From Deinococcales bacterium (GTDB lineage: Bacteria; Deinococcota; Deinococci; Deinococcales; JAAFIG01), in NCBI GenBank assembly GCA_043778225.1, contig JAYWGM010000040.1, forward strand, positions 1 to 27,831: DNA of 27,831 nt, given 5' to 3'. This document shows, piece by piece, positions 1-27,831 of this stretch. The notes beneath the pieces were generated by a model. It worked only from the letters and a program-made list of their open reading frames with translations, had not been told where the DNA came from and did not search any database. The position numbers were made by a program, and so were the translations under genes. Position 1 is the stretch's first letter. Every line of letters begins with the position of its first letter.

Positions 1-68
1 CTGCTGGACGAGCAATATATATACGGAACAGCCATGCAGCCCGCCTACGACCTAAGTACGAATAAACA

Positions 69-323
69 TTAGGCTTCGACCCGTCTTTTGGTGGGGGCAT
101 TGGTCTGCTGCATCTGCGAAGCCGCTTGTCCGACTTGTACGCCAAACATCCACGCCAAACGGTGCATAAACGAAACGGTTTCGTAGTCGCCAGCCAGCAC
201 TCGGTCGCGCATATAGGCATCGACACCAACAGGAAACTGTACACCTTTGATCTCTTCGCCATTGTGCTGTTTCATGCGTTCGATAAATGCCCGAACTTCG
301 ACTAAACCCTCGGCTTCTTTCAT
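69..323 (-). CDS. ddrH: DdrH-like small protein (Deinococcus DNA-damage-response protein H family), 84 aa
   Basis: C-terminal FMHRLAWMFGVQVGQAAS...RRVEA resembles the DdrH pattern as I recall it (FMxxLAWQFGAQVGYAAG...RVQA). Start moved to ATG 323 because TACACT (336-331) lies 7 nt upstream. Confidence 0.55.
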   Translation of the reverse strand: MKEAEGLVEVRAFIERMKQHNGEEIKGVQFPVGVDAYMRDRVLAGDYETVSFMHRLAWMFGVQVGQAASQMQQTNAPTKRRVEA

Positions 324-373
324 GGTCTTTAGTGTAATACTTTTACGGTAACTGTGCGTAGCCCCGAACACGA

Positions 374-1669
374 TTAAATATCTTCCTCGAGCAAAGGCAA
401 AGTAATCGTAAAAACCGTGCCTTGCCCTAATTCTGATTGCACGGCTACTGTCCCGCCATGAACTTTGGCAATTTGTGCCACAATCGCTAGTCCTAACCCC
501 GCGCCTCTCGAGCTTGCACCTTTGACAAATTTTTCAAAAATATGCGGCAGCAGTTCTGGGGCAATTCCAGCCCCTTGGTCAATCACAATAAACTCAAGTT
601 TTTGCCCAACCCGCCGCAGCTCGAGTTGAACCTTTTCTAGACCGGCGGCTCGGACAGCATTTGAAGTCAGGTTACGCAATAACTGGGCTAATCGGTCGGG
701 GTCGCCAAGTAACTCGAGCGGTTCTTGGGGAAATTTTAGATTTTTAATGCCAAACTCGCTGGCCACCCCGGTCATTAAATCCTTGGCATCCAAGACAAAA
801 GGCACAAGTTCTTGGACGACTTCGCCGCGTGAAAGTTGTAGTAAATCCGAGACCAAACGGGTCATGTTTTTGGCAACTCGGGTGGCATCATCCAGAATTT
901 TATGGCTTTCTGGCGTGGCATCGCGCTTGGCTTGGCGTACATAGCCCTCGAAAGCAGTGACGGGGGTGCGGAGTTCGTGGGCAACTTCAGCAAGAAAGGT
1001 TTTTTGCGCCGCAAACGCCCCATTTAAGCGCAGCACCAATCGGTTGAGGGTTTCTACCAAGACCCCAAGCTCATCTCGAGCGCCGTTATACAACAGTGGC
1101 TTGAGGTTTGATTCGCTTAAATCTTGGGCTTGACGCGCCACGCTAATCAAAGGGCGTAAACCCAATTGGGTCAGCAGATAGCCACCAAGCAGCGCCAGCA
1201 CAACCAGAATTGCGGTCACAATCAGGGTGGCAACTTGTACTCGAGATGCCAAATTGTTGATGTACTCGGTGCTGGCGGCAATGGTTAAAACCTTATTGGG
1301 TTGGCTCGAGAGAATCGCAATTGGCTCGAGCAGCACCAAGACTTGGTTAGAGCGCCAAAAACGCCGTGCCGCAAAAGCAGTTTGAATTTCGGCAACTGGT
1401 AACTCGAGTTGGACTGCATTCTGAAAAGCTGTGCCATCGCGGTTAAAAATAGCAAAACGAGTCCCGCCGAGTAATTCCCGCGACGGCACCGCCCCAAGTT
1501 GGTCTGAGGCATAGAGTTGCTTGAGTTGGGTAGCATCCGACTCGAGCAACCCACGCTGATAGGTTTCTAAAGTATTTGAGACCACGGCACTAACGACTGT
1601 ACCCAGTGTTAAGGCAAACAGCACCAGCAAAGCTGCCATGGCGGCGGCAATACGCCAACGGATGCTCAT
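374..1669 (-). CDS. Two-component sensor histidine kinase (2 TM, HAMP, HisKA, HATPase)
   Basis: H-box FLAEVAHELRTPV, N-box LLRNLTSNA, G1 DQGAGI, F-box HIFEKF, G2 GAGLGLAI; HAMP DELGVLVETLNRL; two hydrophobic segments. Confidence 0.95.
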   Translation of the reverse strand: MSIRWRIAAAMAALLVLFALTLGTVVSAVVSNTLETYQRGLLESDATQLKQLYASDQLGAVPSRELLGGTRFAIFNRDGTAFQNAVQLELPVAEIQTAFAARRFWRSNQVLVLLEPIAILSSQPNKVLTIAASTEYINNLASRVQVATLIVTAILVVLALLGGYLLTQLGLRPLISVARQAQDLSESNLKPLLYNGARDELGVLVETLNRLVLRLNGAFAAQKTFLAEVAHELRTPVTAFEGYVRQAKRDATPESHKILDDATRVAKNMTRLVSDLLQLSRGEVVQELVPFVLDAKDLMTGVASEFGIKNLKFPQEPLELLGDPDRLAQLLRNLTSNAVRAAGLEKVQLELRRVGQKLEFIVIDQGAGIAPELLPHIFEKFVKGASSRGAGLGLAIVAQIAKVHGGTVAVQSELGQGTVFTITLPLLEEDI

Positions 1670-1673
1670 GAGG

Positions 1674-1715
1674 TTGGCTTTGAGCTTTGAGGCTTGAGGC
1701 TCGAGCCTTGGGGTT
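1674..1715. repeat. Degenerate heptamer tandem repeat between response regulator and kinase
   Basis: + strand GCTTTGA GCTTTGA GGCTTGA GGCTCGA GCCTTGG, flanked by a CATGAGG (1667-1673) / CCTCATG (1726-1732) inverted pair. Confidence 0.6.
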
Positions 1716-1735
1716 GATTGCCCTGCCTCATGGCG

Positions 1736-2410
1736 CTATTGTCCTTTTAAGGCATAACCAATGCCGCGCACAGTACGAATTACGCCGTAACCATCCACGT
1801 CGCGCAGTTTAGAACGGATATTTGCCATATGGACATCCACAACATTGCTGTTTTCGTCGAGGTTGCTGCCCCAAACACCACGTTCGATTTCGTCTCGAGC
1901 ATAGACCCGCCCGGGTTGACGCGCCAAAAATGCCAACAATTCAAACTCTTTGGGTGAAAGCCGAATTTCTTTGGCGTTATAGCGCACCAAGCGCTTTTCC
2001 ATATGAATCTCGAGTAAGCCCAGTACAATCGCGTCGCCACCACGGTGTTTACGCAATTGTACCCGCACTCGAGCCACCAACTCGGCTGGTTCAAATGGCT
2101 TGGTCAGGTAGTCATCTGCCCCACCCTCGAGCAACGAAACTTTGGTGCTAACTGCATCCATCGCGGTCAGGATAATGATTGGAATATCGGAGGTTTTCCG
2201 CACCCGACGGGCAATTTCTGCACCATCAAAATCGGGTAAACCCAAGTCCAAAATCACCAAGTCGGGCATCACTTCACGAGCGGCGGTCAGACCAGAAATG
2301 CCGTCTATGGCGGTATGAACCGTAAATCCGGCTTCCTCGAGTTCAAAGCGCAGTACCCGTGTGATGTCTGGATCGTCTTCGATTACCAATATGCGTGCAG
2401 TTTCAGCCAT
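1736..2410 (-). CDS. OmpR/PhoB-family response regulator (DrRRA-like paralog)
   Basis: ILVIEDD, LVILDLGLPDFDG, GADDYLTKPF; winged-helix end SNVVDVHMANIRSKLRDVDGYGVIRTVRGIGY, typical of Deinococcus DrRRA-family regulators. Confidence 0.95.
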   Translation of the reverse strand: MAETARILVIEDDPDITRVLRFELEEAGFTVHTAIDGISGLTAAREVMPDLVILDLGLPDFDGAEIARRVRKTSDIPIIILTAMDAVSTKVSLLEGGADDYLTKPFEPAELVARVRVQLRKHRGGDAIVLGLLEIHMEKRLVRYNAKEIRLSPKEFELLAFLARQPGRVYARDEIERGVWGSNLDENSNVVDVHMANIRSKLRDVDGYGVIRTVRGIGYALKGQ

Positions 2411-2518
2411 TATTTTTGTATTGTACCGTATTCACACGGCTCTTGCACAAAAAGATGGTTTCTCGAGTATGCTGCTGCTTGGCAGTACCAAATTCAAAGT
2501 TGTGAAAGGACAAATTTT

Positions 2519-3067
2519 ATGCGTAAATGGTTGATTGTTTTTCTCGCTGTAATCGGTTTAGCGACCCAAGCCCAAGCTCAAGACTTTAGTATCCGAGCAG
2601 GAATTAATTTAGCTTTTGGTAATCCACTCGCTGTTGGTGTAGATGCACGGCTTTATGCCCTCGATGTGGCTCGGATTGCGCCGACAGTTAATCTGGGCAT
2701 TATTGGAAACGTTGTTTTTAATTTTGGCGGCAATGTTTCTGGTTTATTGTCAGCCGGTCCAGCCATTGTTTTTAGCTTTGACCGTGGAGCAGGATTTGCG
2801 TATGCTGGCGTTAATTTAGGACTGGCTTTTGGTGGTGGTACAGCCTTTATTTTTGCTTTTGTGACTGGTGTTGACTACGACATCAATTCTTCTATTGGGT
2901 TATTTGTTGACCTGAACTTAATTGTTGTTCCCGGTACATTTGGGGCGCTTGACTTGGGGGTTGATTTTGGGCTTTCTCGAGATATTGATGGCTACCTAAA
3001 ATTCATCATCGGTTTTGGCGGAAATAATAGTTTTGGCATTGGCGGCGGCTTAAAGTTCGCTCTGTAA
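2519..3067 (+). CDS. Exported outer-membrane beta-barrel-like protein, 182 aa
   Basis: SD AAAGGA before ATG 2519; signal peptide MRKWLIVFLAVIGLATQAQA; alternating Gly/aromatic strands; ends GGGLKFAL. Confidence 0.7.
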   Translation: MRKWLIVFLAVIGLATQAQAQDFSIRAGINLAFGNPLAVGVDARLYALDVARIAPTVNLGIIGNVVFNFGGNVSGLLSAGPAIVFSFDRGAGFAYAGVNLGLAFGGGTAFIFAFVTGVDYDINSSIGLFVDLNLIVVPGTFGALDLGVDFGLSRDIDGYLKFIIGFGGNNSFGIGGGLKFAL

Positions 3068-3144
3068 AGATTTTCATAGAAAATCTCATGTCATAAAGTA
3101 TCGTGATGGCGTACACTGGCATCTTAGGTTTCAAAAGGATTCGT

Positions 3145-3582
3145 ATGCGTAAAATTTTAATCGTTCTGGCAATCGTTCTCGGTCTCTCAGCTTCTGCAAG
3201 CGCCCAATCATTTGGGGTTAAACTGCTTGGTGTTCAGTACAATACCTTTGACCCGGGTCGTGGTACTGGCTTACAGGTCGCACTTTCAACGCTGTTCTTT
3301 AGCTTTGATTTAGAAGTAAATTATATCATCGGACGCGAAACCATTAGCGACGACCGTAAATTCTCCTTGTTTTATGGGGCTGGCGCACACGCTGGATTTC
3401 TTGGATTCTTCAGTTTCGGTGCAATTGGTTTTGGCGCACACGGAATTGTTGGTCTCGAGTACCTGATTCAGCCATCAACTTCGATTGGTGTCAGTTTGCA
3501 CCCCGGAATTAGTTTCTACACCCAAGGTTTTGGTGTTCTGCCATACTTTGGTGGTGGTCTGTTCGTCAATTTCAAAATCTAG
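3145..3582 (+). CDS. Exported outer-membrane beta-barrel-like protein, 145 aa, probable paralog of the upstream gene
   Basis: SD AAAGGA before ATG 3145; signal peptide MRKILIVLAIVLGLSASASA; FYGAGAHAG and GIVGLEY strands; ends GGGLFVNFKI. Confidence 0.7.
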   Translation: MRKILIVLAIVLGLSASASAQSFGVKLLGVQYNTFDPGRGTGLQVALSTLFFSFDLEVNYIIGRETISDDRKFSLFYGAGAHAGFLGFFSFGAIGFGAHGIVGLEYLIQPSTSIGVSLHPGISFYTQGFGVLPYFGGGLFVNFKI

Positions 3583-3596
3583 TACAGCCTTTCTCG

Positions 3597-3634
3597 AGAC
3601 AGCCCACAGTTTGCTTGTGGGCTGTCTTTCTTTT
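3597..3634 (+). terminator. Intrinsic terminator
   Basis: Perfect 12-bp stem AGACAGCCCACA / TGTGGGCTGTCT followed by TTCTTTT, 14 nt after the stop at 3582. Confidence 0.85.
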
Positions 3635-3683
3635 GGTACGTTCACCCCCTTCTTTAGCAGGACGCAAAGACCTAGAGTGACGT

Positions 3684-5531
3684 ATGTTTCAAGACCTCCA
3701 AGGATTTATCCACTACCTCGAGCAAAAAGGCGAATTGGTTCGCGTCAGCGCCCCCGTCTCGCACGAACTCGAGATTACCGAAATTGCCGACCGCCTCATG
3801 AAATCGGGCGGTCCTGCGGTACTGTTTGAAAATGTGGTTGGCAAAGAATTTCCACTGGTGATTGGCTTAATGGCAACCCGCCAGCGCATGGCATGGGCGC
3901 TTGGGGTGCAAGACCTCGAAGACATCCCAAACCGTTTAAGAAAATTACTCGACATTAAACTCGGTGGCGGTATTCTTGGCTTACTCAGCAATGTCCCTAA
4001 ACTTAAAGACCTAATTGCACTGCCGCCAAAACGGGTGCGAACTGCACCCGTCCAAGAAATCATTTGGCGCGGCGACCAAGTGGATTTGTCTAAAATCCCC
4101 GTTCTTAAATGCTGGGAACTGGACGGTGGACCTTTTGTGACCCTGCCTTTGGTGATTACCAACGACCCCGAAACTGGCGAGATGAACATGGGAATGTACC
4201 GAATGCAAATCATGAGTAAAAACACAACCGGAATGCACTGGCAACGCCACAAAACTGGAGCAAAGCACCTCGAGAAAGCCAAAAAGCTCGGCAAAAGGCT
4301 CGAGGTGGCGGTGGCAATTGGCGGCGACCCTGCCCTGATTTATGCTGCCACTGCACCAATTCCACCAGTCCCCGGCATCAACGAGTACAGCCTAACCGGT
4401 TGGCTGCGCGGCAAGGGGCAAGAAGTGGTGCGTGGTATTACGGTTGGGCTAGAAGTGCCAGCCAATGCCGAATTTATTCTCGAGGGCTACATTGACCCGA
4501 ACGAAGACTGGGTTCTCGAGGGTCCGTTTGGCGACCACACTGGGTTTTACACGCTCGAGGATATGTACCCACTTTTTCATGTCACGGCAATTACGATGCG
4601 AAAAAATGCAGTCTATCCCGCCACGATTGTTGGCAGACCGCCGATGGAAGATGCCTATTTAATCGAGACCACCGAGCGGATTTTTCTTGTGCCAGCGCAG
4701 CTTATTTTGCCCGAAATTGCCGATTATCATCTGCCACCTTGTGGTATCGCCCATAATTTGGTCAATGTGACGATTAAAAAATCCTATCCCGGGCAAGCCT
4801 ATAAAGTTGCCAACGGAATGTTTGGGCTTGGGCAAGCGATGTTTACCAAAGTGGCGGTCGTCTGCGAGGCGGGCGTGGCAAAACCACAAAACAACCTCGA
4901 GTTTTGGCAACACGCCCTGCTGCACTGTGAACCGGGGCGCGATACCGTGATTACCAAAGGACCAACCGACGTGCTTGACCACTCGAGCCGCGAGTGGAGC
5001 TATGGCAGCAAACTAATTATGGACGGCACAATCAAAACGTGGGAAGAAGGCAAAGCCATTCCGTGGACTCCAGCTTTTGCTCGAGATGCCCACACCTTGC
5101 CAAAACTTGAAGGGATGCTCGAGCAGAGCCAAGCCGGTGGCGGAATTTGGTGGGTCAGTTTACAGAAAACCAAAGCCCACCAAGGGCTAGAACTTGGTAA
5201 GACCCTAGCCACCACCCCAGAAGCGGCTGGAATTCGTTTAATTGCCATTGTGGACGAACAAACCGATGTGCTGGATGTCGAAGATGCTTTCTGGACGCTC
5301 TTAAACAACATAGACCCAGAGCGCGACTCGAGCATTGTGGCTGGTCCAACAGGCAATGTACTGGTGCTGGATGGCTCGAGAAAAATTGCCGAAGAGGGCT
5401 TCACAAGGATTTGGCCGCCAAAAATTTCAATGCCCCCCGAGATTGCCGAACTTGTAGACCAACGCTGGGAAGAATACAAACTGGGCGTAGCCAGACCCAA
5501 ATCTCCGACAGGGCGGAAAAGCCTAGGTTAA
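3684..5531 (+). CDS. ubiD: Menaquinone biosynthesis decarboxylase, UbiD family (futalosine pathway, MqnL-like)
   Basis: ELEITEIADR, GGPAVLFENV, DGGPFVTLP, NMGMYRMQ, EGPFGDHTGFY, GRPPMED, DVLDHS; long duplicated C-terminus typical of the menaquinone subfamily. Confidence 0.9.
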   Translation: MFQDLQGFIHYLEQKGELVRVSAPVSHELEITEIADRLMKSGGPAVLFENVVGKEFPLVIGLMATRQRMAWALGVQDLEDIPNRLRKLLDIKLGGGILGLLSNVPKLKDLIALPPKRVRTAPVQEIIWRGDQVDLSKIPVLKCWELDGGPFVTLPLVITNDPETGEMNMGMYRMQIMSKNTTGMHWQRHKTGAKHLEKAKKLGKRLEVAVAIGGDPALIYAATAPIPPVPGINEYSLTGWLRGKGQEVVRGITVGLEVPANAEFILEGYIDPNEDWVLEGPFGDHTGFYTLEDMYPLFHVTAITMRKNAVYPATIVGRPPMEDAYLIETTERIFLVPAQLILPEIADYHLPPCGIAHNLVNVTIKKSYPGQAYKVANGMFGLGQAMFTKVAVVCEAGVAKPQNNLEFWQHALLHCEPGRDTVITKGPTDVLDHSSREWSYGSKLIMDGTIKTWEEGKAIPWTPAFARDAHTLPKLEGMLEQSQAGGGIWWVSLQKTKAHQGLELGKTLATTPEAAGIRLIAIVDEQTDVLDVEDAFWTLLNNIDPERDSSIVAGPTGNVLVLDGSRKIAEEGFTRIWPPKISMPPEIAELVDQRWEEYKLGVARPKSPTGRKSLG

Positions 5532-5541
5532 AAGGTCAAAG

Positions 5542-5592
5542 GGTTAAAAGGGAAAAAGGTTAGGTCTTTACTTTTTCCCTTTTAACCTTTTT
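5542..5592. terminator. Bidirectional terminator-like hairpin built from octamer repeats
   Basis: Perfect 17-bp inverted repeat GGTTAAAAGGGAAAAAG (5542-5558) / CTTTTTCCCTTTTAACC (5571-5587) followed by a T run, between convergent ubiD and truA. Confidence 0.75.
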
Positions 5593-5613
5593 CCCCTGCT
5601 CTTGACCCTGCCC

Positions 5614-6444
5614 TTACCCCTGCCATGGGCTGTAGCCAGCTTTGACAAAGTACAGACCGTGGGCAGCAACGTTCTTACCAGCTTGGTCGCGGTCTTTGGA
5701 CTCGAGAACACCCAGCACATCCTCGGATTTTATTTTGCCACTGCCAACCTCGAGCAGTGTGCCAACAATGCCGCGTACCATATGGCGCAAAAAACTCTCG
5801 CCCGTAATTCGCACTTCAATAAAATCAGCATTCCTCGAGAACGGCGCAGAGATGGCGCGGACATCGCACGCCAGCACTTCGCGTTCGGTTTGGCGCTCCT
5901 CGCGGGTGGCAAAAGCTGCAAAGTCGTGTTCTCCGATTAAATGGGCTGCTGCATGGCGCATTGGGGCAACCTCGAGGCGGTAGGGTATCCAAAGGGCGCG
6001 AGAACGCTCTAGGGCGCTGGCGGTGGGTGTGTTGAGAATTCGGTAACTGTATGAACGCCAATTGCAGGAAAAACGGGCATGAAAATTTGCGTCTGTGTCG
6101 GTGCAACTTAAAACCCGTACATCTGGCGGCAAACGGGCATTCAGGGCTTTGACAACCTTCTCGGCTGGCGTGGTAAAGCCAACATCCACATGGACTGTCA
6201 TCTCGAGCGCATGAACCCCAGCATCGGTGCGTCCGGCTGCCATCGGGCGGTTATAGCGACCCAGTGGCTCGAGGGCGGTTTCTAATGCCCCTTGAATGGT
6301 GCGCTCGCCTTTAGATTGGACTTGCCAGCCCTTAAAATTCGTGCCATCCCACTCGAGCAGCAAACGCAAACGCCGCCAACTTGGGGGCAGACGTGTTTGC
6401 AGCGCCATCGCTTCGGATGTGTCGTTGGGTTCACTCAAATTCAT
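5614..6444 (-). CDS. truA: tRNA pseudouridine(38-40) synthase TruA
   Basis: LEWDGTNFKGWQVQ, AGRTDAGVHA, FHARFS, GEHDFAAF, FLRHMVRGIVG, AHGLYF. The start at 6444 (TACAAT 10 nt upstream) is uncertain. Confidence 0.95.
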   Translation of the reverse strand: MNLSEPNDTSEAMALQTRLPPSWRRLRLLLEWDGTNFKGWQVQSKGERTIQGALETALEPLGRYNRPMAAGRTDAGVHALEMTVHVDVGFTTPAEKVVKALNARLPPDVRVLSCTDTDANFHARFSCNWRSYSYRILNTPTASALERSRALWIPYRLEVAPMRHAAAHLIGEHDFAAFATREERQTEREVLACDVRAISAPFSRNADFIEVRITGESFLRHMVRGIVGTLLEVGSGKIKSEDVLGVLESKDRDQAGKNVAAHGLYFVKAGYSPWQG

Positions 6445-6539
6445 TCGATTCCAAATTGTACCGCCCAAGATGAGACTTGGCTGACCCGTGTGACCAAACC
6501 GCACCGTGCCATGACAAAAATCAGGTAGACTCGAGCCAT

Positions 6540-7667: not shown

Positions 7668-7699
7668 ACCTCGAGCAGTAGGATTAGGCGGTACTCGAG

Positions 7700-12973: not shown

Positions 12974-12974
12974 T

Positions 12975-17072: not shown

Positions 17073-17089
17073 AGACCAGAGAGGTGTAT

Positions 17090-18646: not shown

Positions 18647-18678
18647 CGGGGCAGCATAACAAATAATTTGAGTGTGGC

Positions 18679-18708: not shown

Positions 18709-18718
18709 AACATCACAG

Positions 18719-18764: not shown

Positions 18765-18789
18765 AGAATGGCGCTGCTTGGAGGCAATT

Positions 18790-19980: not shown

Positions 19981-19990
19981 GGTGTATTTT

Positions 19991-21469
19991 ATGACTTTTT
20001 TAGCGGTCGAAAACTTAAAAAAACACTTTGGAGCAACCAAAGCCGTGACCAATGTCAGTTTTGGTCTCGAGCGTGGACAGGTCATGGCGCTGGTTGGCGA
20101 AAACGGGGCTGGCAAATCCACAATTGTCAAAATCCTGACCGGTCTCTATAAGCCCGATGCGGGCAGCATTCGCTTGGATAACACGCTACGGGCATTCTCG
20201 AGTCCACAAGAAGCGTGGCGGGCTGGAATTACCGCAATTCATCAAGAAACCGTGATGTTTGACGAGTTATCGGTTGCCGAAAACATCTGGATTGGCAATC
20301 AACCAAGCCGTTTTGGGCTGGTGCAATGGAAAACCCTACTCGAGCAAACTGAAATTATTTTAGCCCGTATTGATGCCAAAATTTCGCCCCAAGCGCCACT
20401 TAAAACGCTTTCGGTGGCGCAAAAGCATCTGGTGCAAATCGCTCGAGCGCTGACCCAAGATGCCAGTGTGGTGATTATGGACGAACCAACGGCGGCGCTG
20501 TCCAAAGCCGAAATCGAGGACTTTTTTCGGGTTGTGCAGCAGTTAAAATCCGAGAACAAAGCAATTATTTTAGTGACCCATAAATTTGACGAAATTTTTA
20601 CGTATGCCGATACTTATGCAGTGCTGCGCGACGGGCAGATGGTCGGGGCTGGGCAAATTGCCCAAACCTCGAGCGATGCTTTAATTCAACAGATGGCGGG
20701 GCGAGAAGTCGGGGACTTATTTCCAAAAACCAATGCCAAAAAACACGAAACGGTTCTCGAGGTACAAAATTTCTCGCATCCAACCGAATTTAAGGACATC
20801 AGTTTTAGCGTTAAACGCGGCGAAATTCTTGGTTTTTATGGTTTGATTGGTGCTGGGCGCAGCGAAGTCATGCAGGCGATTTTTGGCTTAAACCCAGAAG
20901 CCACGGGTACGATTTTGATTGCGGCTCAGGTGGTGCAGATTCATTCGCCTGCCGATGCGGTCAAGCATGGTTTGGTCTATGTGCCAGAAGACCGTCAGCA
21001 AGCGGGGGCAATCCTAGACATGAGCATCCTCGAGAACATCAGCCTCTCGAGTTTAGACCAATTGGGTTTTTGGTTATCACGCCATAAAGAAGAAAACCTC
21101 GCCATGCCTTTGGTGCAAAAATTGTCCTTGCGGGCGGCACACCTCGAGCAGCACGTTTCAGAATTGAGCGGTGGCAATCAACAAAAAGTGGTTTTAAGTA
21201 AATGGCTGGCAACCAAACCAACCATTTTAATTTTAGATGAACCAACCAAAGGCATTGATGTCGGCGCAAAATCGGCAGTTCACAGCCTGATGAGCAGCAT
21301 GGTCGAGCAAGGCTTGGCAGTGATTCTGGTCAGTTCCGAGTTGCCCGAGGTGATGCACATGAGCGACCGAATTCTGGTGATGCGCCAAGGGCGTTTGGTG
21401 GCAGAATTCGATGCTAAACAAGTCACGCCCGAAGAAATCGTGGCACAAGCAGCTGGAGTCAAAGCATGA
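19991..21469 (+). CDS. rhaT: Sugar ABC transporter ATP-binding protein (two ABC domains)
   Basis: GENGAGKST, IMDEPTAALS, YVPEDR, LSGGNQQKV, LDEPTKGIDVGAK. Confidence 0.9.
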   Translation: MTFLAVENLKKHFGATKAVTNVSFGLERGQVMALVGENGAGKSTIVKILTGLYKPDAGSIRLDNTLRAFSSPQEAWRAGITAIHQETVMFDELSVAENIWIGNQPSRFGLVQWKTLLEQTEIILARIDAKISPQAPLKTLSVAQKHLVQIARALTQDASVVIMDEPTAALSKAEIEDFFRVVQQLKSENKAIILVTHKFDEIFTYADTYAVLRDGQMVGAGQIAQTSSDALIQQMAGREVGDLFPKTNAKKHETVLEVQNFSHPTEFKDISFSVKRGEILGFYGLIGAGRSEVMQAIFGLNPEATGTILIAAQVVQIHSPADAVKHGLVYVPEDRQQAGAILDMSILENISLSSLDQLGFWLSRHKEENLAMPLVQKLSLRAAHLEQHVSELSGGNQQKVVLSKWLATKPTILILDEPTKGIDVGAKSAVHSLMSSMVEQGLAVILVSSELPEVMHMSDRILVMRQGRLVAEFDAKQVTPEEIVAQAAGVKA

Positions 21470-22443
21470 AAATTATTCTACAAAATTACCGTCGGGAATT
21501 AATTTTACTGCTCTTTTTGGCATTTGCTTTTGTGGCTGTTGGGTTGGTTTCGCCCAGTTTTATCAGCCTAAAAACCCTCGATGCGATTTGGCACGATAGT
21601 GTGCTGCTCTTGATTTTAGCACTGGTGCAAATGCCAATTATCATCTCGAGGGGCATTGATTTAAGCGTGGCTGCCAATCTGGCTTTGACTGGAATGCTGG
21701 TGGCGCTGTTGGCAAAAAGTAACCCCGAGTTGCCCGTGCTGGTATTGCTGCTGGCTGGTTTTGGAATTGGCGCGGTGCTGGGGGCGGTCAATGCTTTTTT
21801 AATCACCCTGCTCGAGTTGCCGCCAATTGTGGCGACGCTTGGCACAATGAGCGTCTACCGAGGCATGACCTATGTCGTTAGTGGCGGACAATGGGTCAAT
21901 TCTCAGGACTTTCCGGTGGGGCTGCTCGAGTTTCCAAATGCGCGTTTTTTAGGTTTGACCAGCCTCGAATGGATTAGCCTTGTGGCGCTTTTTTTGGCGT
22001 GGCTGCTTTGGCATCAGAGTCGTTTTGGGCGTGAAATCCGAGCGCTTGGCAACAACCCAAGTGCGGCTCGCTATGTCGGGGTTCTTGAGCGACCGCGTTT
22101 GGCGGTGCTGTATACGCTGGCAGGAGCGGTGGCTGGCTTTGTCTCGGTGCTGTGGGTGGCTCGCTATGCAATTGCCAGTACCGAATTGGCGATTGGCTTT
22201 GAACTACAAGTCGTGGCAGCGTGTGTGCTGGGTGGCGTGAGCATTGCTGGTGGAGTTGGTACGGTTTATGGCACAACCTTGGGTTCGCTTTTTTTGGTGA
22301 TGCTTTATAACGCTCTGCCAGTCATTAAAATTTCACCGTTTTGGCAAACCGCGATTGTCGGTGTGGCTATTTTGGTGGCGGTGATTGTCAATCAAAGTGC
22401 GGGTAAAAGAATCGGCAAAAACATTTTGAGGGTTCATCCATGA
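21466..22443 (+). CDS. rhaP: Sugar ABC transporter permease
   Basis: GIDLSVAANLAL, LPPIVATLGTMSVYRG, FELQVVAACVLGGVSIAGGVG; ATGA overlap. Confidence 0.88.
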   Translation: MKIILQNYRRELILLLFLAFAFVAVGLVSPSFISLKTLDAIWHDSVLLLILALVQMPIIISRGIDLSVAANLALTGMLVALLAKSNPELPVLVLLLAGFGIGAVLGAVNAFLITLLELPPIVATLGTMSVYRGMTYVVSGGQWVNSQDFPVGLLEFPNARFLGLTSLEWISLVALFLAWLLWHQSRFGREIRALGNNPSAARYVGVLERPRLAVLYTLAGAVAGFVSVLWVARYAIASTELAIGFELQVVAACVLGGVSIAGGVGTVYGTTLGSLFLVMLYNALPVIKISPFWQTAIVGVAILVAVIVNQSAGKRIGKNILRVHP

Positions 22444-23429
22444 GTCAGCCAACCAAACGTGCGCCGTTTAAGCTCAGTGCTTTATTTTTGCGTTGGGAAA
22501 TGATTCTCATCCCACTTTTGGCAATCGTAATGCTGGTCAATGGCAATGTCTCCGAATTTTTCTGGGACCCTTTTAACCTTGGCGATGCCACTTTTAACTT
22601 TAGCGAAAAAGGCATCATGGCGATTGCGATGGCGCTTTTAATCCTGACTCGAGAAATTGATTTATCGGTCTCCAGTATTATTGCATTGGCTTCTTTGGTC
22701 ATGGGTCTGGCGGCTCAAAATGGCGCAGAAACACCCGTCTTGGTGCTGTTGGCGGTTCTGACCGGTACACTGGCTGGATTTTTTAACGGCTTTTTGGTGA
22801 TTCGTTTTGCCGTGCCAAGCATTGCAATTACGCTTGGTACAATGAGTTTATTTCGTGGCATCTCGCAAGCCATTCTTGGCGACCAAGCCCTGACCACCTA
22901 CCCAGAATCCTTAGCCAACCTTGGGCAAGGCTATCTGCTTGAGCCAATTCCCTACAGCTTTGTGACTTTTTTAGGGCTGGCATTGGTGATTGGTCTTGTG
23001 CTGCACCGCACCCGTTGGGGCAGACAACTGTACGCGATTGGCAACAGCCCCGAAGCCGCCAAATTTAGCGGTATTCCAGTAGCTCGGTATCGTTTAATTT
23101 TATTTACCTTATCGGGGGCATTTGCGGGTCTAGCTGCGGCTTTTTTAACAAGCCGTATCTCGAGTACCCGCCCGAACATCGCTCAAGGCTGGGAACTGGA
23201 TGTGATTACCATGGTCGTACTGGGTGGGGTTGGTATTGCGGGCGGCACAGGTTCGATGTTTGGCGTGGTTTTAGCGGTTTTGTTGCTTGGGATGATTTCC
23301 TTTGGACTGGCGCTCTTAAATGTGCCGGGGATTGTTGCCAGTATTTTTATTGGTGCATTGCTGATTGGGGCGATTGCCCTGCCACCGCTTCTAAAAAAGA
23401 TTTTTCGCGTGGTGGGTCGGCAAAAATAG
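22440..23429 (+). CDS. rhaQ: Sugar ABC transporter permease
   Basis: EIDLSVSS, VPSIAITLGTMSLFRG, STRPNIAQGWELDVITMVVLGG; ATGA overlap. Confidence 0.88.
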   Translation: MSQPTKRAPFKLSALFLRWEMILIPLLAIVMLVNGNVSEFFWDPFNLGDATFNFSEKGIMAIAMALLILTREIDLSVSSIIALASLVMGLAAQNGAETPVLVLLAVLTGTLAGFFNGFLVIRFAVPSIAITLGTMSLFRGISQAILGDQALTTYPESLANLGQGYLLEPIPYSFVTFLGLALVIGLVLHRTRWGRQLYAIGNSPEAAKFSGIPVARYRLILFTLSGAFAGLAAAFLTSRISSTRPNIAQGWELDVITMVVLGGVGIAGGTGSMFGVVLAVLLLGMISFGLALLNVPGIVASIFIGALLIGAIALPPLLKKIFRVVGRQK

Positions 23430-23444
23430 CTCGAGATGCACACG

Positions 23445-24218
23445 TTACTTGGCGATAATCAATTTCAGACCACTGGCAACCAACCAACGGCGCATCGCGG
23501 CATCGGGTTCTTTGTCGGTAATTAGGCTGTCCAGATGCTCGAGTTCAATAATCGTGGTGAAAGCCGTAACGTTCAGTTTGCTGTTGTCCACTAAGGCAAT
23601 TGCCGATTTTGAGCTTTGGATTAAGCGGGTTTTGACTTCGGCTTCGATTAAACTGGCATCGGTTAGCCCAGCTTTTAAGGACAAACCCTTAACCGAAAAA
23701 AAGACTTTATCGGGGTGCAATTTACCCAGCACCAATTCGGTGATTGGTCCAGAGAAACCTCGAGCCACAGGATTAAATGTGCCACCCAACATTGTAAAAG
23801 GAGTTTTACTGGCAGCCAGCACACTGGCGGCTTCCAGCCCACTGACCAAAACATGAACCCGCCCTCGGGTTGCCAAGACTCGAGCCACTTCAAGGGCAGT
23901 GGTGCTGGCATCGAGCGCAATGGTATCGCCGTCTTGCACCAGTTTAACAGCTTCTCGAGCAATCGCACGTTTGGCGCTTAACTCGCGGCTGGCACGCATT
24001 TCGTAGGCAATATCGGCTTGGGCTTGCTCGAGGATTCGTGCGCCACCACGCACAATTTCAATCAGCCCTTCGCGCTCGAGTTCAGCCAAGTCGCGGCGCA
24101 CCGTGACCTCATGCACCTCGAGGGCGGCGGCGAGATTTTTTAAGGGAATTGAACGAGCGATTAAAATGCGCTCGAGAATAGCGTGGCGACGTTCAGTGGG
24201 TAGCATGACTTTAGCCAT
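23445..24218 (-). CDS. DeoR/GlpR-family transcriptional regulator
   Basis: HTH VHEVTVRRDLAELEREG, IALDASTT, ALVDNSK; start is 24218 or 24206. Confidence 0.92.
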   Translation of the reverse strand: MAKVMLPTERRHAILERILIARSIPLKNLAAALEVHEVTVRRDLAELEREGLIEIVRGGARILEQAQADIAYEMRASRELSAKRAIAREAVKLVQDGDTIALDASTTALEVARVLATRGRVHVLVSGLEAASVLAASKTPFTMLGGTFNPVARGFSGPITELVLGKLHPDKVFFSVKGLSLKAGLTDASLIEAEVKTRLIQSSKSAIALVDNSKLNVTAFTTIIELEHLDSLITDKEPDAAMRRWLVASGLKLIIAK

Positions 24219-24228
24219 GCTATTGCAA

Positions 24229-24256
24229 TTTGCAAAATAAAACAAGATTTTGCAAA
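24229..24256. promoter_or_regulatory. Palindromic candidate autoregulatory operator
   Basis: TTTGCAAAAT-N8-ATTTTGCAAA with perfect 10-bp arms, directly upstream of the DeoR gene. Confidence 0.6.
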
Positions 24257-24269
24257 TTTCTGTTTGTTT

Positions 24270-25877
24270 TTAGTAGACCAAAGCTGCGCCGTCGCATCTG
24301 GATTCTGTACCAGCCACCAAGGTTTCTCCATTGCGCCAAATAATCTGTCCGCGCCCAAAGCTGCCATTCTCGAGTTGCAAAATAACTTCATGACCTTTGG
24401 CACGCAACCCTTCGGCGATATGGCGTGGCGTTTGGCGCTCGAGTTCGATTTTTTTGCGCTCGAGCCATTGCCAACGTGGGGCATCCAGCGCCGCCTGTGG
24501 GTGCATTTGGTAATCGAGGGTATTGAGCATCATTTGCAGATGTCCTTGCGGCTGCATATAGCCACCCATCACCCCAAATGGTCCGATGGCTTGTTGGTCT
24601 TGACTTAAAAAGCTCGGAATAATCGTGTGATAAGGGCGTTTATTTGGCTCGAGGGTATTGGGGTGGTTTGGCTCGAGGTTAAAGTTTGCGCCTCGATTTT
24701 GCAGCGCAATACCCGTACCGGGGACAACAATACCACTGCCAAAACCAGCATAGTTACTTTGGATATAGCTGACCATCATACCGTCGGAGTCGGCAGTACA
24801 GAGGTAAACTGTGCCACCTTTTGGCGGTTGCCCAGCACTTGGCAGCAGGGCTTGTTCGCCAATCAAGGCGCGGCGTTCGGCAGCATAGCCTCTATCGAGT
24901 AAGCCCTGTGTTGGTACATCGGCTCGAGTCGGGTCTGCCACAAAGGCTAGGGTATCCGAAAAAGCCAGTTTCATGGCTTCGATTTGCAGGTGGTAGCTTT
25001 CTAGGCTGTCGCGTGGCAGCTGTGCCATCTCAAAACCCTCGAGAATGTTTAGGGCGCTCAGGGCGGCAATACCTTGACCGTTGGGTGGAATTTCCCAGAT
25101 GTCGTAGCCTCGGTAATTGGTGCTGATAGGCGCTACCCATGTGCTGCTGTGGCGGGTTAAATCCTCGAGGGTGATAACACCACCTGTCTGTGCCGCAAAA
25201 TCCTCGATTTGCTGCCCAAGGCTGCCGGTATAAAAATCTTGGCTGTAGGTCTGGCTGATACGCCGCAAGGTCTTGGCATGATTGGGCAAATAAAATACCT
25301 CGCCAGTCTGTGGACTGCGCCCAGCTTGGGTAAAGGTCTGTTGCCACGGCAAAAATTCTGCGCCCTCGAGCAGGGCATAATTTCGGGCAGCGTACTGCCA
25401 AAACCGCGCCACGGTCGGCGAAACCACAAAGCCATTCTGGGCATAATCAATCGCCGCTTCAAAAAGACGCTCGAACGGCAAACGCCCAAATTTTTGGTGT
25501 AAATCGCGCCATGCGGCTGGCGCCCCTGGCACAGTCACACTCAACCAACCGCGCTGGGGCATGGTTTGGTGTCCTCGAGCCTCGAGTAAGTTTTTTGTTA
25601 GGTTTTGCGGCGCTCGCCCCGAAGCATTTAAGCCGTGCAGTTTATTGCCATCCCAGACCAAAGCAAAAGCATCGCCACCAATCCCATTGCTGGTTGGCTC
25701 GACCACCGTTAAACAGGCTGCCGTGGCAATGGCAGCGTCTACGGCGTTACCACCGATTTTGAGTACCTCGAGTCCAGCTTGGGCAGCCAGCGCTTGGCTG
25801 GTGGCAACCGCGCCACGACTTCCAAAGCTCGAGGGGCGTTGGTTGCTGTATGAATTCGACTCGAGTTGCAGTTTCAT
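24270..25877 (-). CDS. ggt: Gamma-glutamyltransferase family protein
   Basis: GGNAVDAAIATAA, VVEPTSNGIGGDAF, nucleophile Thr in GGTVY, QSNYAGFGSG, RPYHTIIP, GVMGGYMQPQGH. Confidence 0.93.
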   Translation of the reverse strand: MKLQLESNSYSNQRPSSFGSRGAVATSQALAAQAGLEVLKIGGNAVDAAIATAACLTVVEPTSNGIGGDAFALVWDGNKLHGLNASGRAPQNLTKNLLEARGHQTMPQRGWLSVTVPGAPAAWRDLHQKFGRLPFERLFEAAIDYAQNGFVVSPTVARFWQYAARNYALLEGAEFLPWQQTFTQAGRSPQTGEVFYLPNHAKTLRRISQTYSQDFYTGSLGQQIEDFAAQTGGVITLEDLTRHSSTWVAPISTNYRGYDIWEIPPNGQGIAALSALNILEGFEMAQLPRDSLESYHLQIEAMKLAFSDTLAFVADPTRADVPTQGLLDRGYAAERRALIGEQALLPSAGQPPKGGTVYLCTADSDGMMVSYIQSNYAGFGSGIVVPGTGIALQNRGANFNLEPNHPNTLEPNKRPYHTIIPSFLSQDQQAIGPFGVMGGYMQPQGHLQMMLNTLDYQMHPQAALDAPRWQWLERKKIELERQTPRHIAEGLRAKGHEVILQLENGSFGRGQIIWRNGETLVAGTESRCDGAALVY

Positions 25878-25995
25878 TGGCGTATTCTAGCCTAAATAAA
25901 TAGTATCTTTTCTTACGATTTTCTGGTCGGATTGATACAGTCTTGACCTTATTAGTTTTGTATTCTGGTCTGAGAGCAATTTTTGGGGGGATTTG

Positions 25996-26712
25996 GTGGC
26001 GGTTTTTGGTAACTTGACAGAATTTCCTTTGCTTGAAGTCTTTGGGATGCTCGAGCGGCGTTGTGGTGTTTTGCGTTTTACCCGAGTTGGTCGTTTTGCG
26101 AACCTCGAGTTTCATTTGAATAATGCCCAATTACAGGGCTTGGTGGTGGATGGCAAAGTCATGCGTGATGGTTTGATGGCAAAAAATTTATTGGTCGAAA
26201 TTGCCAACATACGCGATGGGAAATTTGAATTTCAACGTGTTCCAGTTGGTTCAGATGTTCTCTTAAACGACCTTGCCATCAGCATCAACGAGGTTTTACT
26301 GCGACGCGCCACACTCGACGACGAATGGAATAATTACCGCGAAAACCTGCCAGATGGTGAAACGCGCTTTATGCTCTCGAGTCAAGAATTGGTCTGGTTG
26401 GATGGTGACTTGCAGTTTTTTTGGAATCAAGCTGAGCCGCTTTTGGAGTATGGTATCAGCGCCAAGGATTTGGCGGTTCGCCTTAGTCTCGAGGTCAAAA
26501 TGGTGCAAGTCAATCTGTACAAACTCCGTGTTTTGGGTGTGATTCGTCCAGCCAGACGAATGCAGGAAGTGTCAGACATTCGAGCCGGTAATTTCCCTGG
26601 TCGAGAAAGCCGTCCAGCCCCAGTGTATATCCCACCTGTTGCGCCACAAGCCAAGCCGACCTTGGTCTCGAGGTTACTTGGGGCGCTGCGTTTCTTTGGG
26701 AAGCCAGCATGA
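25996..26712 (+). CDS. DUF4388 (PatA-N-like) domain protein
   Basis: MAVFGNLTEFPLLEVFGML, GKFEF, EVLLRRATLDDEW and a C-terminal HTH-like segment; located before GTPase and Roadblock genes. Confidence 0.75.
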   Translation: MAVFGNLTEFPLLEVFGMLERRCGVLRFTRVGRFANLEFHLNNAQLQGLVVDGKVMRDGLMAKNLLVEIANIRDGKFEFQRVPVGSDVLLNDLAISINEVLLRRATLDDEWNNYRENLPDGETRFMLSSQELVWLDGDLQFFWNQAEPLLEYGISAKDLAVRLSLEVKMVQVNLYKLRVLGVIRPARRMQEVSDIRAGNFPGRESRPAPVYIPPVAPQAKPTLVSRLLGALRFFGKPA

Positions 26713-26798
26713 GTTCGCCCTGTGGGAAACCAGCATGATTTCGCTTTTGGAGAAGCCAGTATGAGTTCGCTTTTGGAGAAGCCAGTATGAATCCGCTT
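26700..26798 (+). repeat. 26-bp tandem repeat, about 3.8 copies, encoding three coupled 9-aa mini-ORFs
   Basis: GAAGCCAGCATGAGTTCGCCCTGTGG / GAAACCAGCATGATTTCGCTTTTGGA / GAAGCCAGTATGAGTTCGCTTTTGGA / GAAGCCAGTATGAATCCGCTT; ATGA at 26709, 26735, 26761 and 26787. Confidence 0.92.
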
Positions 26799-27344
26799 AA
26801 ATTGGTCATTTCTGGTCCGGTTGGGGCGGGTAAAACCACTTTTGTGCAGTCTTTGTCCGAAATTCCAGTGGTCAATACCGATGAAGCCGCCAGCGAAAAC
26901 ATTGGCAAAGCCACCACCACGGTTGCCTTGGATTTTGGGATGATGACGCTGGATGGTATCCCAATTCATTTATTTGGCACACCGGGACAAGACCGTTTTG
27001 ATTTTATGTGGGAGATTTTGTGCGAAGGCGCGCTGGGTTTACTGATTTTGGTCTCGGGCGATCGACCACAAGATTTTCCTCATGCACGGCGAATTCTCGA
27101 GTTTATCACCAGCCGAATTGCGGTGCCGTTTTTGGTCGGTGTGACCCGTCAGGATTTACCTCGAGTTTGGGAACCCGAGGATGTGGCAGAATACTTTGAT
27201 TTAGCCCCAGAATTTGTGATTGGCATCAATGCCACCAGTGCGACCTCGAGTTTATTGGCAACTGTGCGCTTACTCGAGTTAGTAGAAGCCTACGACCCGT
27301 ACTACGCCGAAAGCCTGCAAGGTAATTATATCTTTGGTCAGTAA
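26787..27344 (+). CDS. MglA/CvnD-like small GTPase
   Basis: G1 GPVGAGKTT, G2 TTTVALDFG, G3 GTPGQDRF, G4 variant TRQD. Confidence 0.9.
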   Translation: MNPLKLVISGPVGAGKTTFVQSLSEIPVVNTDEAASENIGKATTTVALDFGMMTLDGIPIHLFGTPGQDRFDFMWEILCEGALGLLILVSGDRPQDFPHARRILEFITSRIAVPFLVGVTRQDLPRVWEPEDVAEYFDLAPEFVIGINATSATSSLLATVRLLELVEAYDPYYAESLQGNYIFGQ

Positions 27345-27390
27345 CTCAAAAATTTAGTTGTAAACTGTGATTCTCTAAGGGGGCAATAAA

Positions 27391-27762
27391 ATGAGTGTAG
27401 GTAAACAAGAAGCCTTACAACAAGCGCTAACGGCATTGCGGACTGCAATCCCAGAAATTCGTGGTGCTTTAATCGCCAGCACCGATGGTTTACCGATGGC
27501 GCAAAACCTGTCGGGCAGCGAAGACCCAAATCGGGTGGCAGCCATGGCAGCCACAGCCCTTGGCTTGGGCAAACGTATTTCGGACACCTTAAATTCGGGA
27601 GCGCTGACCGAAACCACTGTGACCGGCACAAACGGTCAGATTTTTTTGTACGCGGCTGGTGGTAAAGGGGTACTGGTGGTGGTGGCGGCGGCTGGTGCAA
27701 ATGTCGGTTTAATCAATTTAGAAGCTCGAGATGCAGTGCGAACGATCGCTGCGGTGTTGTAA
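27391..27762 (+). CDS. Roadblock/LC7 (MglB-like) protein
   Basis: ALIASTDGLPMA, RVAAMAATALGLG, NVGLINLEAR. Confidence 0.92.
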   Translation: MSVGKQEALQQALTALRTAIPEIRGALIASTDGLPMAQNLSGSEDPNRVAAMAATALGLGKRISDTLNSGALTETTVTGTNGQIFLYAAGGKGVLVVVAAAGANVGLINLEARDAVRTIAAVL

Positions 27763-27770
27763 GGAGACTC

Positions 27771-27831
27771 ATGAATGTCAGACCAGAACTTGGCGAAATG
27801 ATGAGCCTGATTTGCTTTAAGGCAGCCATTG
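27771..27831 (+). CDS. Partial gene, probably a V4R-domain protein (runs off the window)
   Basis: SD AAGGAG then MNVRPELGEMMSLICFKAAI, resembling as I recall it the RxxLGxFxSxxCFKA start of V4R proteins in Roadblock operons; only 20 codons visible. Confidence 0.5.
   Translation, partial: MNVRPELGEMMSLICFKAAI

Follow-up and report, generated by a model that had tools for sequence, protein, structure and literature searches.

CTCGAG as a highly iterated, HIP-like palindrome in Deinococcales and its possible role as a methylation-marked genomic word

Introduction

Highly iterated palindromes (HIPs) have been a cyanobacterial puzzle for three decades. For HIP1 (GCGATCGC), a biased-repair model has been proposed (Elhai 2015, PMC4390886), as has a role in the nucleoid or in chromosome structure, together with a reported periodicity of 10-90 kb (Xu et al. 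2018, PMC5861425). Here, we examine the hexamer CTCGAG in a stretch of 27,831 nucleotides from a Deinococcales bacterium (GenBank assembly GCA_043778225.1, contig JAYWGM010000040.1; hereafter, the window), in the genome to which it belongs, and in related genomes. A sequence-only reading of the window had claimed that CTCGAG behaves like HIP1 in a non-cyanobacterium, occurring in all codon phases and between genes so that a preference for one dipeptide would not explain it, and had suggested a signal for methylation-directed repair, recombination or DNA uptake.

Two other kinds of genomic words invite comparison with CTCGAG: the uptake signal sequences and DNA uptake sequences (USS/DUS) of the Pasteurellaceae and Neisseriaceae, and the targets of orphan DNA methyltransferases, such as GATC for Dam. 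In open-access PubMed Central papers and bioRxiv, to which our literature searches were confined, an excess of CTCGAG in Deinococcota does not seem to have been described.

Results

CTCGAG in the window and in the genome

The window, contig C40 of the analyzed assembly (G000), holds 158 copies of CTCGAG against 3.24 expected (standard deviation 1.93, maximum 10), a number reached by none of 100 dinucleotide-preserving shuffles; 19 of these sites lie outside gene models. The assembly comprises 4.03 Mb in 107 contigs, with 48.7% G+C and 89% completeness, and our own crude, non-curated gene calls yielded 3,439 genes covering 87% of the DNA. CTCGAG occurs in it 24,877 times, that is, 6.17 times per kb (6,174 per Mb) or about once per 160 bases in genic and intergenic DNA alike, which is 26.7 times the 931 copies expected from base composition. 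It is the most frequent hexamer of the genome, even when the counts of non-palindromes are summed over both strands. A fourth-order Markov model predicts 21,466 copies, near the observed number, because CTCGAG saturates its own sub-words: 68% of all TCGA tetramers of the genome fall within it.

The hand count of the sequence-only reading, about 50 sites in the first 7.7 kb and a similar density after position 11074, comes close to the exact figures of 51 sites in 1..7699 (6.62 per kb) and 107 sites in 11074..27831 (6.39 per kb). The excess is not confined to the window but is genome-wide, family-wide and, in part, phylum-wide. The description of the source as a non-cyanobacterium also holds: neither PsaA nor PsaB was found in the 89%-complete assembly, and the nearest public relative of a window gene, at 93% amino acid identity, comes from a Deinococcales metagenome-assembled genome.

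Codon usage, dipeptides and repeats

Within genes, 13,042 sites read CTC-GAG (phase 0), about 4,347-4,361 lie in phase 1 and about 4,442-4,454 in phase 2, with 10 straddling gene edges; about 3,016-3,036 sites are intergenic. The density is 6.21 per kb in coding and 5.90 per kb in intergenic DNA. The 60% of coding sites that fall in the Leu-Glu phase could suggest an artifact arising from preferred codons or dipeptides, or else a dispersed repeat present in many copies or a mobile-element footprint, such as a 6-bp insertion. We give explanations of this kind next to no chance, given the results that follow. Shuffling synonymous codons within genes, which preserves both the protein and the codon usage, left 2,340 +/- 52 of the 21,870 sites observed in coding DNA, and shuffling the order of codons left 1,016. 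CTC-GAG encodes 69% of the Leu-Glu pairs, against 6.8% expected from marginal codon use; outside the motif, CTC accounts for 9.7% of Leu codons and GAG for 23.7% of Glu codons. A dicodon-preserving model predicts 2,650 sites for phase 1 and 2,153 for phase 2, where 4,361 and 4,454 were observed; it keeps phase 0 by construction and is circular there because CTCGAG is itself one dicodon. In intergenic DNA, 3,016 sites stand against 98 expected from base composition or 72 from a first-order Markov model, a 31-42-fold excess. The same synonymous shuffle applied to a non-enriched genome, G197, gives an observed/expected ratio of 1.0, and therefore the method does not create the signal.

The flanks of the G000 sites show no extended consensus, and 122 distinct contexts surround 123 close pairs of sites. 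An origin from a dispersed repeat was rejected given this lack of consensus, and an origin by 6-bp insertion was rejected given that gaps opposite motif codons in outgroup orthologues (2.8%) are hardly more frequent than elsewhere (1.5-2.1%).

CTCGAG is a true highly iterated palindrome that is favored at the DNA level and not through codons, peptides or a repeat element. The phase counts and shuffles agree with the sequence-only statement that the word occupies all three phases and intergenic DNA and that one dipeptide is insufficient to explain it. The genome-wide excess persists under codon-preserving shuffles, and it does not disappear under dicodon preservation either, given the surplus that remains in phases 1 and 2 and between genes; phase 0 cannot be judged in that way. 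The likeness to HIP1 drawn from the window is thus supported by counts, phases, intergenic density and shuffles.

Conservation and turnover of sites

Maintenance was assessed in 168 orthologues shared with G006, a genome of the same genus, at 70% nucleotide identity and with only 43% of four-fold sites identical (genome codes such as G000, G006 and G253 and labels of families and genera such as f2, f3, g7 and g14 are those of our analysis collection; the DNA of relatives was sampled at 92-496 kb per genome, which is less than whole genomes). The alignment of orthologues had been proposed along with the original claim. In the three phases, 58%, 52% and 50% of CTCGAG sites are retained, compared to about 18% for other hexamers, which places CTCGAG within or above the top 1% of hexamers. 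Sites are kept about three times better than other hexamers, with a large turnover: 654 are common to both genomes, 536 are found only in G000 and 496 only in G006.

Of the Leu-Glu positions that both genomes retain, 423 carry the motif in each of the two, 102 and 87 (189) in one genome alone, and 68 in neither (odds ratio 3.2). This pattern fits a genome-wide pull on every possible position, combined with some positional memory. By a rough estimate, the motif state has odds at Leu-Glu positions of about 95 times those expected out of context, which, under a two-state model, would correspond to a scaled advantage of about 4.5. The force behind CTCGAG is still acting, and a continuing genome-wide push could account for part of the conservation of sites between orthologues.

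Effect on proteins

The force behind CTCGAG overrides codon choice and roughly doubles the frequency of Leu-Glu, which is the most over-represented dipeptide of G000 (observed/expected 2.31; 0.96 for Glu-Leu). Leu-Glu occurs 16.1 times per 1,000 residues in G000 and 8.7 times in G197, a G+C-matched genome (49.9%) with 0.27 CTCGAG per kb, no excess of the word and a Leu-Glu ratio of 1.25. In the aligned regions of 206 orthologue pairs, Leu-Glu was counted 1,129 times in G000 and 612 times in G197. Motif-encoded Leu-Glu is also Leu-Glu in G197 in 176 of 789 cases, and the residues opposite are mostly one-step neighbors (LD, IE, LQ, LS, VE).

Motif-encoded residues are less conserved with respect to G197 than the same residues elsewhere: 51% versus 61% for Leu and 40% versus 50% for Glu (p about 1e-7), and 49% versus 58% for the phase-1 Arg (p 0.006), with the phase-2 Ser borderline (p 0.055). 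The same pattern was obtained with 152 pairs from a high-G+C outgroup, G020, and the density of sites is slightly lower in more conserved genes (rho -0.15). From an unpolarized comparison of two enriched lineages, with Leu-Glu ratios of about 2.3, and two non-enriched ones, with ratios of 0.9-1.25, we infer that the dipeptide was gained in the enriched lineages.

Distribution, spacing and a site-free island

The density of CTCGAG is 5-8 per kb in each 25-nt bin within 200 nt of gene starts and stops, and 5.9-6.8 per kb throughout the deciles of gene length. Sites are spaced more evenly than expected by chance, with a trimmed coefficient of variation of 0.877 compared to 0.967-1.018 for 12 control words, and with a deficit of distances below 25 nt and at 300-800 nt. 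Pairs exactly 7 bases apart number 123, against 30-53 for distances 8-11, with an unbiased middle base and distinct contexts; one such CTCGAG-N-CTCGAG pair lies at 25574..25586 of the window. A distance of 6 never occurs in G000 because it would create GAGCTC. The word CCTCGAGG is present in G000 in 243 copies, compared to about 800 predicted from flank frequencies.

Among the 2,460 genes of at least 600 nt, only 34 lack CTCGAG, with a median G+C of 0.37 compared to 0.50 for the rest. The entire assembly contains only three CTCGAG-free stretches of at least 2.5 kb, all of low G+C. The third longest lies in the window, from about 7694/7700 to 11073 (about 31% G+C, no sites), and reads as recently imported DNA; such DNA is devoid of CTCGAG. 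Contigs of two samples cross this island with no difference. Its three genes, all on the minus strand and all without sites, encode a HEPN protein of the RiboL-PSP / MAE_28990 type (7894..8577, 28% G+C), a protein with a GmrSD_N domain (8574..9737, 29% G+C) and a DNA methyltransferase of the N6_N4 type (9716..11011, 32% G+C). The last of these is no candidate for a CTCGAG enzyme because it is located in imported DNA. At the edge of the island, a frame of 127 amino acids (7560-7943, minus strand) matches only positions 2-40 of a 5-methylcytosine (m5C) methyltransferase family, and looks like what is left of a cytosine methyltransferase that the insertion interrupted.

The native DNA of the window carries, in 1..7699, histidine kinase, response regulator, UbiD, TruA and SpoIID genes with their spacers, and, in 11074..27831, genes for a LeuA-like synthase, an oxidoreductase, a sugar ABC transporter, DeoR and gamma-glutamyltranspeptidase along with small genes. 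A dispersed repeat of about 140 bp (19797-19936) is located there between the genes for a sugar-binding protein and an ABC ATPase. More than 25 copies on other G000 contigs are 80-91% identical to it, every genome of the same genus contains dozens, and contig depth rises about five-fold at the repeat in both samples; it looks like a miniature inverted-repeat transposable element or an element of the repetitive extragenic palindromic type. Separately, the 40 variants shown between assembled contigs come from minor contigs, in stretches without CTCGAG.

Purge of other palindromes

In G000, 34 of the 64 palindromic hexamers have an observed/expected ratio below 0.1 (median 0.08), compared to 2.1% of the non-palindromes, most of which contain GGCC. 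Only one copy each was found of GACGTC, GGGCCC and AGGCCT, three of GGCGCC and 24 of GAGCTC, where 837-931 are expected for each. GGCC itself occurs 131 times against 14,138 expected, and GATC has a ratio of 0.13. The number of palindromes below 0.1 is 27 of 64 in G253 and 25 in G006, both enriched in CTCGAG, 21 in the intermediate G207, 10 in G020, where CTCGAG is depleted, and 3 in the non-enriched G197. We read this purge as the result of heavy and long-lasting restriction pressure. Some 24 DNA methyltransferase genes or fragments are present in G000.

Spread across Deinococcota

All 18 other genomes of the G000 family (five genera, all metagenome-assembled) carry 4.3-6.9 CTCGAG per kb. Across a sample of 301 genomes of the phylum, which in the collection used form one order with five families, the density is graded: 0.01-0.25 per kb in the 100 genomes of g7, about 0.9 in the 31 genomes of g9, mostly 2-3.5 in g13-g15, and 0.3-2.8 in family f2. 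G265, an unpublished genome of the collection, enters tallies only and supports no claim made here. Family f3 includes two outliers, G253 with 7.0 and G196 with 3.6 per kb, whereas G197, filed in the same genus as G253, has 0.3, so that the density differs 25-fold between two genomes filed in one genus. "Same genus" is here the label of the collection only; the two were compared directly through six proteins of a single contig pair, which are 40-71% identical. The sampled DNA of G253 has 7.2 sites per kb, 7.7-fold over synonymous shuffles, with an intergenic density at least equal to the coding density and a Leu-Glu ratio of 2.25-2.42. Median amino acid identity to G000 is 52% for G253 (40 proteins), 46% for G197 and 50% for G020, and G253 is thus not a nearer relative of G000 than the other two. 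G207, of family f2, is intermediate: its 2.25 sites per kb exceed shuffles 3.2-fold, its spacers are enriched as well, and its dipeptides show no effect.

Methylation of CTCGAG in cultured relatives

Blow et al. (2016, PMC4752239) give, in their tables S3/S4, CTCG(m6A)G as a type II N6-methyladenine (m6A) motif of three cultured Deinococcota, with the column for a cognate nuclease empty in all three. The organisms, genes and methylated fractions of CTCGAG sites given there are Meiothermus ruber DSM 1279 (Mrub_2385, 99.5%), M. chliarophilus DSM 9957 (MeichDRAFT_0814, 94.1%) and Marinithermus hydrothermalis DSM 14884 (Marky_0034, 94.6%). In the main text of that study, CTCGAG appears only in connection with Nocardia replication origins, and Meiothermus, Marinithermus, Thermus and "Deinococc" do not appear.

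Two genomes of our collection seem to correspond to these strains. G038 is a single contig of 3,097,457 bp with a 597-aa Eco57I-family gene (L267) at 2.44 Mb, where locus tag 2385 should lie, and the sole Eco57I-family match of G025 (L259, 479 aa) is located at 34.6 kb, where Marky_0034 should lie. G038 would accordingly be M. ruber and G025 Marinithermus hydrothermalis, with these genes as putative CTCGAG enzymes. The two are only 28% identical to each other; if the strain assignments hold, the same specificity is therefore carried by unrelated enzymes within the phylum, which makes the lack of a conserved orthologue a weaker objection to methylation in the G000 family. Replacement by non-orthologous CTCGAG enzymes is possible. 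The G025 enzyme matches M.TaqI over its full length (E 1.7e-126) and shares 54% identity with a protein of 423 aa from a g9 genome, so that, judging by sequence similarity, TCGA and CTCGAG enzymes seem to be close relatives.

CTCGAG is also the top palindrome in 100 kb of G038, where its density of 2.5 per kb exceeds that of synonymous shuffles 3.4-fold. Counts in the three phases are 204, 14 and 16 against 62, 1.2 and 4.9 expected, and spacers contain 15 sites against 3.7. Within family f2, a homologue (465-629 aa) of the putative M. ruber enzyme was found in 26 of 102 genomes, with a median CTCGAG/GAGCTC ratio of 11.8 compared to 1.7 for the other 76; by genus, the medians are 11.5 for the 11 genera with a homologue and 2.0 for 22 genera (p 0.0003). 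A relation between CTCGAG density and GAGCTC scarcity within f2 was considered and discarded, there being no monotonic trend (rho 0.11, p 0.27); GAGCTC is scarcer in the 15 densest genomes alone (0.15 versus 0.62 per kb).

Methyltransferase candidates in the family

Candidate enzymes of G000 were searched either throughout the family or in five of its genomes, each representing one of the five genera. The TaqI-like L001 (C65:15245-17197), with N6_Mtase, Eco57I and TaqI_C domains, was found in none of the five; a protein search yielded only five matches of at least 68% identity, followed by matches of about 50% in other phyla, and this candidate was set aside. L003 (C92:61731-63236), a 501-aa member of the Eco57I family with a weak match to the catalytic domain of M.TaqI (E 8e-8), was found in one of five at 43% identity. 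Identity to the putative G025 enzyme is only 21-23% for L001 and L003, and specificity is not readable from these sequences. L002, compared only with Eco57I-family loci, has a best match of 27% identity. The m5C enzymes L009-L011 have one orthologue at 82%, with other matches at or below 57% over part of the length and none in G010. Among beta-class enzymes, L014 was found in all five genomes at only 30-50% identity, L015 in one of five as a partial match and L016 in one of 18. The 1,341-aa L004, present in 14 of 301 genomes, was rejected as the CTCGAG enzyme, its sporadic distribution reading as that of a mobile defense gene.

At least one Eco57I-family match exists in each of the eight strongly enriched genomes searched (G000, G006, G009, G010, G011, G013, G253, G196), with no shared orthologue, and the non-enriched G197 has no Eco57I-family match. 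Dam-class matches are present in all eight family genomes searched, although only weak ones in G006 and G010. The Dam-class (D12) genes of G000 (C101:10360-11568, C66:66701-68466 and C89:22856-24828) each lie beside a second low-G+C gene in a CTCGAG-poor islet, and one such pair may account for the scarcity of GATC. A search for the XhoI-family nuclease (PF04555) gave matches in none of 19 genomes, and in no control genome either, so that it is uninformative. The search for an orphan methyltransferase resembling XhoI/PaeR7I or TaqI enzymes, suggested by the sequence-only reading, thus came out in part: Eco57I/TaqI-like genes are present, but none of those tested is conserved at the orthologue level across the family. 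With G000 only 89% complete, the gene for such an enzyme could be missing from the assembly.

Discussion

A proposed methyl mark on own DNA

We tentatively favor, at somewhat less than even strength, the interpretation that CTCGAG in the G000 family is a HIP-like, methylation-marked genomic word, that is, a CTCG(m6A)G target that would form a dense methyl mark on the cell's own DNA. By analogy with the cultured Meiothermus and Marinithermus, the adenine would be methylated by an enzyme without a partner nuclease, and the methylated word would resemble Dam GATC or HIP1, which has orphan methyltransferases of its own. A mark of this kind could distinguish the old strand from the new, or own from foreign DNA, in repair, recombination or transformation. 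It would have to be present within a short distance everywhere, a need that would account for sites being evenly spaced and as dense in coding as in non-coding DNA. The repair, recombination or uptake signal suggested by the sequence-only reading may likewise hold for this lineage, with the published methylomes of relatives speaking for it and the lack of a family-wide orthologue among the tested G000 methyltransferases against it.

Several observations weigh against this interpretation. No methyltransferase of G000 that was tested is conserved at the orthologue level across the family (L012, L013, L017 and the type I, ISP and MmeI-like enzymes fell outside the test), so that a single nuclease-less methyltransferase conserved across the clade, as a Dam-like system would have, was not found; the three Dam-class islets of G000 are probably ordinary restriction-modification pairs. 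The best identity of any G000 protein to either putative CTCGAG enzyme is 23%, which is no close homologue. The closed family genome G013 has no N6_N4 match, and its sole Eco57I-family match is weak and located in a 1,102-aa protein. The assignment of G038 and G025 to named strains is itself an inference, and the enzymes were picked by gene position. The association in f2 comes mainly from the scarcity of GAGCTC, with a modest gap in CTCGAG density (1.68 versus 1.25 per kb by genus), and it treats related genomes, which are not independent. In genus g14, at 2.5-3.4 sites per kb, the putative M. ruber enzyme is found in none of four genomes, one of which has no Eco57I-family match, and genus g31, with homologues of that enzyme at 47-48% identity, has only 0.7-0.9 sites per kb. 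The methylome of M. silvanus, as tabulated by Blow et al. (2016, PMC4752239), includes no listed CTCGAG motif.

Alternative explanations

The principal competitor, rather unlikely in our judgment and compatible with a methyl mark, is a signal for DNA uptake or recombination that has spread by molecular drive, with methylation not needed; fragments bearing CTCGAG would be preferred by competent cells in uptake or recombination, and the word would thereby build up in the genome. The signature of CTCGAG matches the published description of USS/DUS point by point (Findlay and Redfield 2009, PMC2817400). The rise of Leu-Glu in G000 over G197, the location of the motif at less conserved residues, its slightly lower density in conserved genes, its even spacing, and its absence from genes without relatives and from low-G+C islands all agree with such a signal. 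The wealth of methyltransferase genes and the palindrome purge of G000 would also be in keeping with it; in Neisseria and Haemophilus, competence goes together with numerous restriction systems. As for HIP1, a preprint reports that the motif improves transformation, and it is argued to be an uptake sequence in a 2026 paper. ComEC and a secretin were found in G000 and in all six other family genomes searched, but competence genes had to be abandoned as a discriminator, being present in all 15 genomes searched, enriched or not. A hexamer also gives little specificity, known uptake sequences are non-palindromic words of 9-12 nt at about one per kb, and Thermus is not known to prefer particular sequences in DNA uptake.

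That CTCGAG is enriched everywhere, regardless of function, and that its presence at kept Leu-Glu positions is only moderately associated between genomes, which fits a genome-wide push better than site-by-site selection, would also be expected if mismatch correction simply turned near-matches into a functionless word, either through very-short-patch repair and m5C, as for CCWGG in E. coli, or as in Elhai's G-m5C-dependent model of HIP1. Yet CTTGAG/CTCAAG, the deamination product, is not depleted (observed/expected 1.41) and ranks first among the nine variants that differ by one base; the three transition neighbors are about equal (1.16-1.41), so that no single position is being corrected; and even spacing is not predicted. 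Three m5C queries detected no m5C methyltransferase in G010 (91% complete) and one distant match in G011. Neither the conserved m5C methyltransferase nor the depletion of T-for-C variants that characterizes Dcm/Vsr systems was found, and methylation-directed repair in its m5C, very-short-patch form, as one version of the original suggestion would have it, is contradicted by the variant counts and by the lack of such an enzyme in G010. We consider neutral biased repair very improbable. Uniform density, even spacing and conservation of sites above background, which Xu et al. (2018, PMC5861425) read as selection in the case of HIP1, could instead point to the binding word of an abundant DNA-binding protein with a role in nucleoid or chromosome structure, methylation being absent or incidental. 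No candidate protein was found, however, and CTCGAG methylation in the cultured relatives would be left unexplained; we regard such a role as improbable.

Returning to the methyl mark, a broader proposal, which we hold to be unlikely, is that CTCGAG serves across Deinococcota as the single "licensed" palindrome, a methyl-marked badge of own DNA read in uptake, recombination or repair, densest, at up to one per 160 bases, in lineages that purge nearly all other palindromes under heavy restriction traffic, and appearing or vanishing between G253 and G197. If that were true, HIP1 and CTCGAG would be two independent solutions to the same problem, and the culturable Meiothermus would make the 30-year-old question of HIP function directly testable.

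Implications

CTCGAG is a second, denser case of a HIP, with a different word in an unrelated phylum. It shows that the phenomenon is general, and comparison of the two cases can separate shared causes from cyanobacterial accidents. The system lends itself to experiment: the density of sites forms a gradient over the phylum, culturable relatives that show a moderate excess have published CTCG(m6A)G methylomes with no cognate nuclease listed, and, as m6A within CTCGAG blocks XhoI, digestion with this enzyme is a one-step assay. The absence of CTCGAG flags imported DNA in these genomes. The word also distorts codon and dipeptide statistics, for which gene finders and codon-based analyses should allow.

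Comparison with known systems

Among orphan methyltransferase targets, such as Dam GATC and the CTCGAG near the replication origin of Nocardia (Blow et al. 2016, PMC4752239), the likeness lies in an adenine-methylated palindrome with no listed nuclease, as tabulated for three cultured Deinococcota. The words described there cluster locally at replication origins, unlike the genome-wide, 27-fold excess of CTCGAG, whose methylation in the G000 family is putative. M.TaqI (TCGA, m6A) resembles the G025 enzyme over its full length, the domains of L001 and, weakly, L003; the latter two, as noted, diverge from the G025 enzyme, and neither is conserved in the family.

With USS/DUS, CTCGAG shares an approximate doubling of the encoded peptides, a preference for poorly conserved residues, absence from genes without relatives, and a word common to a whole lineage, as described by Findlay and Redfield (2009, PMC2817400). 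Both the doubled peptide and the absence from imported genes were found for CTCGAG. It differs in being a palindrome of 6 nt that is about six times denser. The likeness lies in the genomic signature. The competence genes tested do not set enriched genomes apart from non-enriched ones.

HIP1 and the alternate HIPs are the closest counterparts. As described for these (Elhai 2015, PMC4390886; Xu et al. 2018, PMC5861425), CTCGAG is a short, G+C-containing palindrome, tens-fold over-represented in all frames and between genes, conserved between orthologues above background and missing from imported DNA, in a genome that avoids many other palindromes; the methyltransferase of the word is present in HIP genomes, and one for CTCGAG has been published in cultured relatives. 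Its copy number and excess in G000 reach the usual mark for HIPs (at least about 1,000 per Mb and tens-fold), it extends to all frames and to non-coding DNA beyond codon usage, and its sites are retained in orthologues at 50-58% against about 18%. Alternate HIPs reach 1,000-2,000 copies per Mb (Elhai 2015, PMC4390886), compared to 6,174 in G000. The differences are that CTCGAG belongs to another phylum, as a hexamer of 67% G+C rather than an octamer, that the dipeptide it encodes is visibly doubled, and that no methyltransferase was found to be conserved across the family. HIP1 methyltransferases, moreover, are described as recognizing GATC and CGATCG, whereas methylation in the relatives studied here is m6A at CTCGAG. 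Given that its lineage is not cyanobacterial, we file CTCGAG as HIP-like and not as HIP1.

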